Origin: a virus
Length of the DNA stretch: 44,771 bases
Strand: one strand, 5' to 3'
UHGV virus genome: UHGV-0180729
Shown: one piece after another, positions 8,198-8,567 of the stretch
How the letters are laid out: the number at the start of each line of letters is the position of its first letter
Numbering within the stretch: the stretch's first letter is position 1
Translations under genes and position numbers: made by a program
The notes under the pieces: generated by a model
Databases searched by the model: none
What the model saw: only the letters and a program-made list of their open reading frames with translations
What the model was told of the DNA's origin: nothing

Positions 8198-8286
8198 ACA
8201 TAATCGCACCTATTGACATTGTGAAAATCTTCGTTTAAGGTGCTTCTATATCTTAGTTACTTTGATTCCTGTTCACCTTGTAAGAA

Positions 8287-8320
8287 TGTTTAACCCGTGC
8301 GTCAAGCAAAGGGTTAAACA
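8287..8320. repeat. Perfect 10-bp inverted repeat in an apparently non-coding region
   Basis: TGTTTAACCC (8287-8296) and GGGTTAAACA (8311-8320); nearby palindrome TTGCCCTGGGCAA (8374-8386) and direct repeats TAAGTATCT (8361-8369, 8415-8423). Confidence 0.45.
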
Positions 8321-8474
8321 CAGGCTTACTGAACATGAGAATTATCGTAACTTTCCTTCCTAAGTATCTCAGGTTGCCCTGGGCAAGCTCTATTCCCATC
8401 GGCAGCATATCTCTTAAGTATCTGATTTTCTTAAAGTGCCGTAGATTCGCAACCGTAAAAATGTAACGATTATT

Positions 8475-8498
8475 GGGCAGGCTTAAGGCCTGCCCTTT
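8475..8498 (+). terminator. GC-rich hairpin with short T-run
   Basis: GGGCAGGCTTAAGGCCTGCCC followed by TTT. Confidence 0.35.
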
Positions 8499-8567
8499 AG
8501 TTACCAAGTAAAAAGAATAAAGGCACAACAGTTTCTAAATAATCACAACGGCATCGTAACTATTTAC

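Follow-up and report, generated by a model that had tools for sequence, protein, structure and literature searches.

A region conserved in hundreds of Escherichia and Salmonella phages most likely encodes a folded RNA of about 250 nucleotides rather than a classical replication origin

Read-through of a phage operon can be controlled by the leader that precedes it, as in λ nut, HK022 put, and λ PR′/6S RNA/tR′, and the origins of T4 (oriF/oriG), T7, and ColE1 provide a precedent for transcript-primed replication from a site with an unwinding element. The region described here resembles several such systems. Like λ nut (boxA/boxB) and HK022 put, it has a stem-loop and a conserved linear element between a candidate early promoter and a terminator. 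Like P4 ori/crr, SaPI ori, T4 oriF/oriG, and ColE1 RNA II, it has a primase-helicase neighbor, an AT-rich stretch, short repeats in both orientations, and a candidate promoter reading in. Like Hfq- and ProQ-class small RNAs (sRNAs), it has a candidate promoter of its own, a stem-loop at the 5′ end, conserved and A/U-rich stretches, the former single stranded, and a terminator hairpin at the 3′ end. The nearest architecture is that of λ PR′/6S RNA/tR′ and its form in Shiga-toxin phages, StxS, in which a promoter and a terminator within ∼200 to 250 nt stand ahead of a long operon with, among others, lysis and structural genes (PMC7547250). A short, constitutively terminated transcript before the late operon is known, and it doubles as a small regulatory RNA in Shiga-toxin phages (PMC7547250); the short noncoding transcript predicted here could be used in the same way.

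The stretch of DNA analyzed here (the window, 44.8 kb) belongs to a Kagunavirus-like siphophage of the subfamily Guernseyvirinae, and its positions 7900 to 8750 are 90 to 94% identical to Escherichia phages ZCEC5, HSE2, and others. From the layout of leftward and rightward genes, a 370-bp region at 8198 to 8567 is the sole point of divergent transcription in the genome. The features of the region and of its surroundings are as follows.

ATG at 8136, minus strand: HTH_17 protein of 56 aa, in the leftward gene set that lies left of ∼8170.
Same operon as the HTH_17 protein and the primase-helicase, minus strand: leftward gene for a 77-aa protein of PHROG 5169, with no known function.
Same operon, minus strand: primase-helicase of 746 aa (AAA_25; PHROG 3228).
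8169 to 8197, minus strand: leftward sigma-70-type promoter of the HTH_17/77-aa/primase-helicase operon, from a promoter scan.
8213 to 8241, plus strand: P1, a candidate rightward promoter, read from the sequence and its conservation.
8253 to 8528, minus strand: ORF of 91 aa with a TTG start, judged not to be a gene.
8255 to 8352, plus strand: long imperfect hairpin of 98 nt, from the minimum-energy fold and covariation.
8287 to 8320, plus strand: apical stem-loop at the tip of the 98-nt hairpin.
8353 to 8470, plus strand: core, defined by cross-genus conservation.
8475 to 8502, plus strand: intrinsic terminator, from a terminator scan and covariation.
8499 to 8561, no strand assigned: AT-rich spacer with a second AGTTAC (8499 to 8504)/GTAACT (8556 to 8561) pair, from the sequence.
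8568 to 8596, plus strand: P2, an early promoter of the group called family B in an earlier, sequence-only reading of this DNA, read from the sequence and a repeated block.
8715 to ∼40.4 kb, plus strand: rightward genes, with small early genes followed by lysis, packaging, and structural genes.

The region also departs from each of the described systems. Compared to λ PR′/6S RNA/tR′ and StxS, it shows no similarity in sequence or in Rfam, a Q-type antiterminator gene was not found, and it adds P2 after the terminator, a covarying hairpin of 98 nt, and a long core that is invariant. Its hairpin is far longer than the boxB or put stems, and an N-like protein was not found; GCTCTATTC resembles boxA only weakly, and less so still in Jerseyvirus, and the leftward operon lacks a matching element. 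For an Hfq- or ProQ-class sRNA, a length of ∼250 nt is long and the U-tail is short, and no chaperone motif or target was identified. Unlike the P4, SaPI, T4, and ColE1 origins, the region carries only two 9-mers and four hexamers without an array, relatives have replaced or deleted its modules, and it does not covary consistently with the putative DNA-binding end of the helicase.

A candidate promoter, a covarying structure, a single-stranded conserved core, and a correctly oriented terminator together fit best with a gene for an RNA of ∼250 nt. We assign a probability of roughly 0.55 to the reading that the region is an unannotated phage noncoding RNA gene with its own promoter and terminator. 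According to this reading, host sigma-70 RNA polymerase would initiate at P1 (8213 to 8241), back-to-back with the leftward promoter of the replication operon, and would transcribe rightward from ∼8248. The nascent RNA would fold at once into the 98-nt hairpin (8255 to 8352), the transcript would run on through the 118-nt core (8353 to 8470), which is nearly invariant and predicted to be mostly unpaired, and it would end at the intrinsic terminator (8475 to 8502), yielding an RNA of ∼250 nt. The downstream early protein genes would be served by the separate promoter P2. Such an RNA would probably be a riboregulator or a protein-binding RNA that works through its conserved core, with the hairpin guarding the 5′ end.

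The sequence-only reading had placed the region between divergent promoters, and both flanking promoter sequences are present. The leftward promoter consists of TTGATT, a 17-nt spacer, and TATACT preceded by TG (TGTATACT; 8197 to 8169), and its hexamer regions, GGGAAATCAA and CAAGTATAC, are the same in all 14 Kagunavirus and Jerseyvirus sequences compared. The region does not, however, lie simply between promoters: a conserved plus-strand candidate, P1, is located inside it (8213 to 8241) and, if P1 fires, positions 8248 to 8502 are downstream of a promoter. P1 is composed of a −35 hexamer, TTGACA (8213 to 8218), a 17-nt spacer, and a −10 hexamer, TAAGGT (8236 to 8241), with a predicted start near 8248. 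It is arranged back-to-back with the leftward promoter, 15 bases from the −35 hexamer of the latter on the opposite strand. The −35 hexamer matches the sigma-70 consensus at 6 of 6 positions and the −10 hexamer at 3 of 6, with A2 and T6 kept; the latter score is below the threshold of the scan tool, which therefore left P1 out. The blocks CACCTATTGACATT and TAAG(G/T/A)T do not vary among the Kagunavirus and Jerseyvirus sequences examined, and this conservation suggests that P1 fires. The one RNA-seq study of a Kagunavirus that was found gives counts per gene only (PMC12645636).

P2 (TTGCAC at 8568 to 8573, a 17-nt spacer, and TACTAT at 8591 to 8596) is located 65 bases past the terminator and drives the first rightward gene (ATG at 8715). 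The 42-nt block that contains it (8562 to 8603) is repeated at 10297 to 10338, its −10 part recurs at 5116 and 5160, and further copies occur elsewhere in relatives. These blocks form one of two families of promoter-like repeats in the window, which are 23 to ∼40 nt long and have conserved spacers: TTGCAC...TAATAGGxTACTATTCAC (8562 to 8603, 10297 to 10338, 5116 to 5138, and 5160 to 5182) and TAACTATAATAGTTCGCTATT (1737 to 1774, 5110 to 5147, and 42947 to 42984). The conserved spacers suggest a factor that reads beyond the two hexamers. Between P2 and the first rightward gene lies an insertion of ∼85 nt (8605 to 8690), which among the aligned sequences is shared by HSE2 only; within it, TAAGCCTGGTAAATAA (8670 to 8685) is complementary to the foot of the terminator at 8470 to 8485 (81% over 16 nt).

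The AT-rich spacer contains CACAACGGCATCGTAACT directly upstream of P2. AGTTAC occurs four times within the 307 bp from 8255 to 8561, in the order plus, minus, plus, minus, compared to ∼0.3 expected from the 41 copies in the whole window, and half of these four copies form the base of the 98-nt hairpin. Because the block CACAACGGCA(A/T)CGTAACT beside P2 is common to nearly all cassette types at this site (see below), it is a candidate P2 operator, and the spacer as a whole (8499 to 8561) may be an operator or an UP-element.

The hairpin at 8255 to 8352 has AGTTAC/GTAACT at its base; above it are three internal stems and then an apical stem, which is variable. A perfect 10-bp inverted repeat had been noted from the sequence at 8287 to 8320; it is present, with arms at 8287 to 8296 and 8311 to 8320 that are 14 nt apart, and it forms the tip of the larger structure. 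All pairs of this apical helix (10 of 10) show two-sided changes among relatives. Relative to shuffled sequences, the 254-nt stretch from 8249 to 8502 folded with a z score of −5.5 and the 5′ domain with a z score of −6.6, and at least five unrelated apical sequences (A, A′, B, C/D, and Jersey) adopt one architecture (z scores of −4 to −6.6). A covariance model built from type-A sequences was used to realign 33 distinct sequences. In this alignment, 20 of the 37 hairpin pairs were altered on both sides, and 96.3% of cells were standard pairs, a percentage that is inflated because the alignment was fitted to the model structure. The covariation score was 0.461, compared to 0.18 for column shuffles (0 of 500 reached the observed value), and it fell to 0.02 to 0.08 (maximum of 0.084) when the 3′ partners were slid by 1 to 3 columns.

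Individual changes follow the same pattern. In raw sequences under plain MAFFT alignment, a single hairpin pair is G-C, A-U, or U-A depending on the phage; another pair passes from A-U through G-U to G-C across phages; and Jerseyvirus carries one extra base in each arm of one stem, a compensated insertion. Selection for a hairpin at the DNA level would yield the same covariation signal. The wobble pairs bear on which strand folds: on the plus strand, G-U (G-T) occupied 45 cells and A-C 9 cells in the model-guided alignment, compared to 9 G-T and 7 A-C mismatches in an unbiased, Watson-Crick-only folding of all cassette types, and the plus and minus strands fold about equally well.

Downstream of the hairpin, the core is as conserved between Kagunavirus and Jerseyvirus (identity of 0.78 to 0.90) as the best nearby coding DNA (HTH gene, 0.80 to 0.89) and more conserved than the N terminus of the primase-helicase (0.5 to 0.7). 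It contains a pyrimidine run (CCTTCC), two copies of TAAGTATCT, the palindrome TTGCCCTGGGCAA, and a 3′ module, GTGCCGTAGATTCGCAACCGTAAAAATGTAAC. The palindrome and the two direct repeats had also been reported in the sequence-only reading, and both were found, the former at 8374 to 8386 and the latter at 8361 to 8369 and 8415 to 8423. The repeats are the only copies of TAAGTATCT in the 44.8-kb window (0.35 expected by chance; two copies in 3 of 100 shuffles). Little structure is predicted for the core, where variation consists mostly of exchanges between Watson-Crick and G-U pairs in weak predicted helices.

The core is followed by the GC hairpin of the earlier description, which extends from 8475 to 8495 and continues into TTTAGTT. 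Its stem, GGGCAGGC/GCCTGCCC, has 8 to 9 pairs, 7 of them G-C, and the T-run lies directly after it. In a scan of 7900 to 8800, the stretch from 8475 to 8502 was the sole terminator-like site, and it takes the form of a terminator on the plus strand only, the minus-strand tail, AATAATCG, containing no T run. The stem and the T-run are invariant; the top pair and the loop covary (CG, 20; UA, 6). The terminator would be expected to stop most transcripts, and read-through is likely given the shortness of the T-run.

The region has no convincing ORF, in agreement with the sequence-only reading. No frame was kept in 27 distinct homologous sequences from GenBank and IMG/VR, compared on both strands, and ORF sets differed even among near-identical phages. 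The 91-aa frame is shortened to ∼27 aa or frame-shifted in several close relatives, and the alignment of the region contains indels of 1, 3 to 4, 7, and 10 nt. Two one-base indels fall within the best-conserved part, one near 8370 and one in the A-run at 8457 to 8461, ruling out a reading frame in the core (8353 to 8470). We weighed these data against a missed protein gene, either the 91-aa minus-strand ORF or a small plus-strand ORF, and consider it very improbable. The 91-aa frame is open, and a few public records place hypothetical proteins somewhere in the region; the annotated ORFs, however, vary in position and frame from record to record, and the region is without annotation in nearly all of 448 matching phage records. 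In addition, the frame begins with TTG, its product matched no PHROG family, and substitutions in the hairpin follow base pairing.

Related phages carry other cassettes at this site. Four other types consist of a promoter and a structured noncoding stretch, and three of the four end in a terminator followed by P2. The Bas72 type keeps the 3′ part of the core and the terminator but differs in its promoter and 5′ hairpin. The K1ind2 and L076 types have wholly different structured sequences of 200 to 300 nt with a different, larger terminator; their promoters at the same site are TTGACA-17-TAAAAT and TTGACT-17-TAAGCT, respectively, and two variants of the L076 type covary with each other. P2, the terminator, and the 3′ part of the core have all been lost in the SETP7-type Jerseyviruses. 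Apart from SETP7, the cassettes have in common a design (promoter, structured stretch, terminator, and P2) and not a sequence. A further variation was observed in six Jerseyviruses (L004, L005, and L008 to L011), which have an extra conserved noncoding module downstream of the homologue of position 8561. This module comprises AAATGCCGAAAGATTCTTAGTC..., a hairpin (GCACTTGCC/GGCAAGCGC), and a purine-rich run, and it is followed by a second family-B-like promoter; in Jerseyvirus jersey, the gene-free gap reaches ∼970 nt with the extra module.

The genes and gene arms on either side of the region also vary among relatives. The primase-helicase (window positions 5438 to 7678, minus strand) is a three-part mosaic whose parts have recombined independently (compared with L046, L057, L072, L076, L049, and L050): the helicase part in the middle is 94 to 99% identical among Kagunavirus-like contigs, the N-terminal ∼300 aa exist in two forms that are 21 to 32% identical to each other, and the C-terminal 130 aa exist in three forms with mutual identities of 32 to 47%. 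A search for relatives of the primase-helicase with solved structures found none. In some close relatives (L001, positions 3224 to 3376, which is phage ZCEC5; L037; and L038), an extra gene of ∼50 aa lies directly upstream of the HTH gene; this insert shifts the start of the HTH gene and leaves both divergent promoters intact. Within the rightward arm, the small genes at 11133 to 11333 and 11288 to 11554 are adjacent, overlapping paralogues with ATGGTACAGAGATAT at both starts and a 42-nt block of 81% identity. Nearly identical hairpins, AAGGCCCC(N4)GGGGCCTT, occur at 28580 to 28599 and 40418 to 40437; they are flanked by A-runs and T-runs and so score as terminators in one or both directions, and the hairpin at ∼40.4 kb is the point where the two transcription arms converge.

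Searches for a known identity or a target of the RNA returned little. In Rfam 15, nothing reached the gathering threshold for the window and seven related loci; the best subthreshold match, Hrs12, reached 20 bits where 70 are required (E = 1) and was rejected as noise. Neither a tRNA nor a tmRNA was detected, and only close relatives and chance 20-mer matches came from a metagenome scan that looked for distant relatives and for contigs the size of the transcript. A host mimic or host target was discarded, as blastn gave no match in 5,426 E. coli genomes and neither similarity nor complementarity was seen. For phage translation-initiation regions as targets in trans, the best duplex was no better than those of shuffled queries (P ∼ 0.25), and a 54-bp duplex with 11132 to 11194 was within the noise of a genome-wide scan. 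Our literature search on these genera turned up no description of transcripts, small RNAs, transcription start sites, or an origin.

The SETP7 type speaks against an RNA gene because it has neither the terminator nor P2. A P1 transcript in these phages must enter the early genes, for which a leader fits better than a stand-alone RNA. The region could thus be a cis-acting leader of the rightward operon, in which the hairpin and core act on RNA polymerase that initiated at P1, and the terminator at 8475 to 8502 and later ones are read through under some conditions; we regard this as quite unlikely. The order of elements (promoter, RNA structure, conserved linear element, terminator, and then the ∼32-kb rightward arm) is that expected of a leader, the arm holds several strong internal terminators, the T-run of the terminator is weak, and the transcript before the late operon in Shiga-toxin phages offers a precedent (PMC7547250). 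P2, however, directly follows the terminator, which looks like insulation and not like control of read-through. We identified no antiterminator protein and no Rfam match, and the resemblance to boxA/boxB, judged by eye, is weak. The antiterminator AlpA of Pseudomonas contacts DNA through residues 128 to 142 and has an N-terminal ring (PMC9371919). The HTH protein next to the region, at 56 aa, matches HTH_17 alone (E = 2 × 10−7), lacks the N-terminal ring-forming segment, and is far too small for a Pseudomonas-type AlpA; antitermination of the AlpA/Q type by this neighbor was therefore rejected.

The sequence-only reading had offered a replication origin or a regulatory locus as the function of the region. 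A noncoding regulatory locus is upheld by the lack of a conserved ORF, the strong conservation, and the position next to the replication genes, at the one place in the genome where transcription diverges. The origin was not supported by our tests, and the features that had appeared origin-like fit a transcription unit instead, with a promoter, a covarying hairpin, and a terminator. We consider an origin unlikely, whether the P1 transcript primes it through a persistent RNA-DNA hybrid or a phage protein recognizes it (candidates being the HTH protein, the 77-aa protein, and the C-terminal domain of the primase-helicase), with the AT-rich stretch from 8496 to 8560 as a possible unwinding element. 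The location at the single divergence point, adjoining the primase-helicase operon, is suited to an origin, and the lowest G+C content (0.42) and the minimum of the cumulative GC skew are found here; the skew switch, however, coincides with the switch in gene orientation, and the minimum is thus not independent evidence. The four alternating AGTTAC hexamers, far above the number expected in 307 bp, the two 9-bp direct repeats, the conserved hairpin, and the AT-rich stretch are likewise compatible with an origin. Two of the three C-terminal clusters of the primase-helicase correspond loosely to a type of 3′ module, but an identical type-A cassette is found beside C-terminal domains sharing only 44% identity, and one C-terminal type (96 to 98% identical) occurs with two different 5′ modules. 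Moreover, for each part of the region there is a viable relative that does without it: the Bas72, K1ind2, and L076 types carry other sequence in place of the 5′ hairpin and core, and a deletion in the SETP7 type has removed the 3′ module and terminator. A contiguous, near-invariant block of 118 nt is also unlike spaced protein-binding sites.

An iteron-type origin, for which at least three to four repeated initiator sites would be expected, is not supported by the repeat content: neither an iteron array nor tandem repeats were found in the region or elsewhere in the window, and the 9-mer has only two copies. The motif TGTTCACC, which resembles the binding site of the P4 alpha protein, occurs once in the region (8270) and seven times in the window, compared to 1.45 expected (0 of 100 shuffles reached 7). 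P4-like iterons were nevertheless rejected and the match treated as a coincidence, because the other copies are in coding DNA and Jerseyvirus has TGTTTCACC at this site. These other copies are at 1251 to 1258, 1266 to 1273, 6130, 22541, 25650, and 37595, two of them 15 nt apart within the minus-strand ORF from 1049 to 1675.

Returning to the noncoding RNA gene as the preferred reading, the region is best read, on comparative sequence data, as a new phage RNA family that is widespread in Guernseyvirinae. A broader proposal, which we make tentatively and hold to be somewhat unlikely, is that the early control region of Guernseyvirinae is a slot for interchangeable structured noncoding RNA cassettes that act as accessory factors in host takeover, antidefense, or competition between phages. 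Were this so, the slot would accommodate at least five architectures with a promoter logic common to all and a terminator logic common to most, and protein-sequestering or decoy RNAs would be swapped by recombination in the way that protein-coding accessory genes are.

Phages of the genera Kagunavirus and Jerseyvirus have been isolated widely and serve in the biocontrol and therapy of E. coli and Salmonella, and yet this region is blank, or annotated with ORFs inconsistent in position and frame, in ∼450 public genomes. More generally, the largest intergenic gap beside the replication genes should not be called "the origin" by default. If the RNA exists, it would represent a new family of phage RNAs that is unusual in the clarity of its covariation and the conservation of its core, and it would come from the DNA that is transcribed first upon infection. 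The interchangeable variants of the RNA would then provide a tractable system for studying the roles of early noncoding RNAs in virulent phages.
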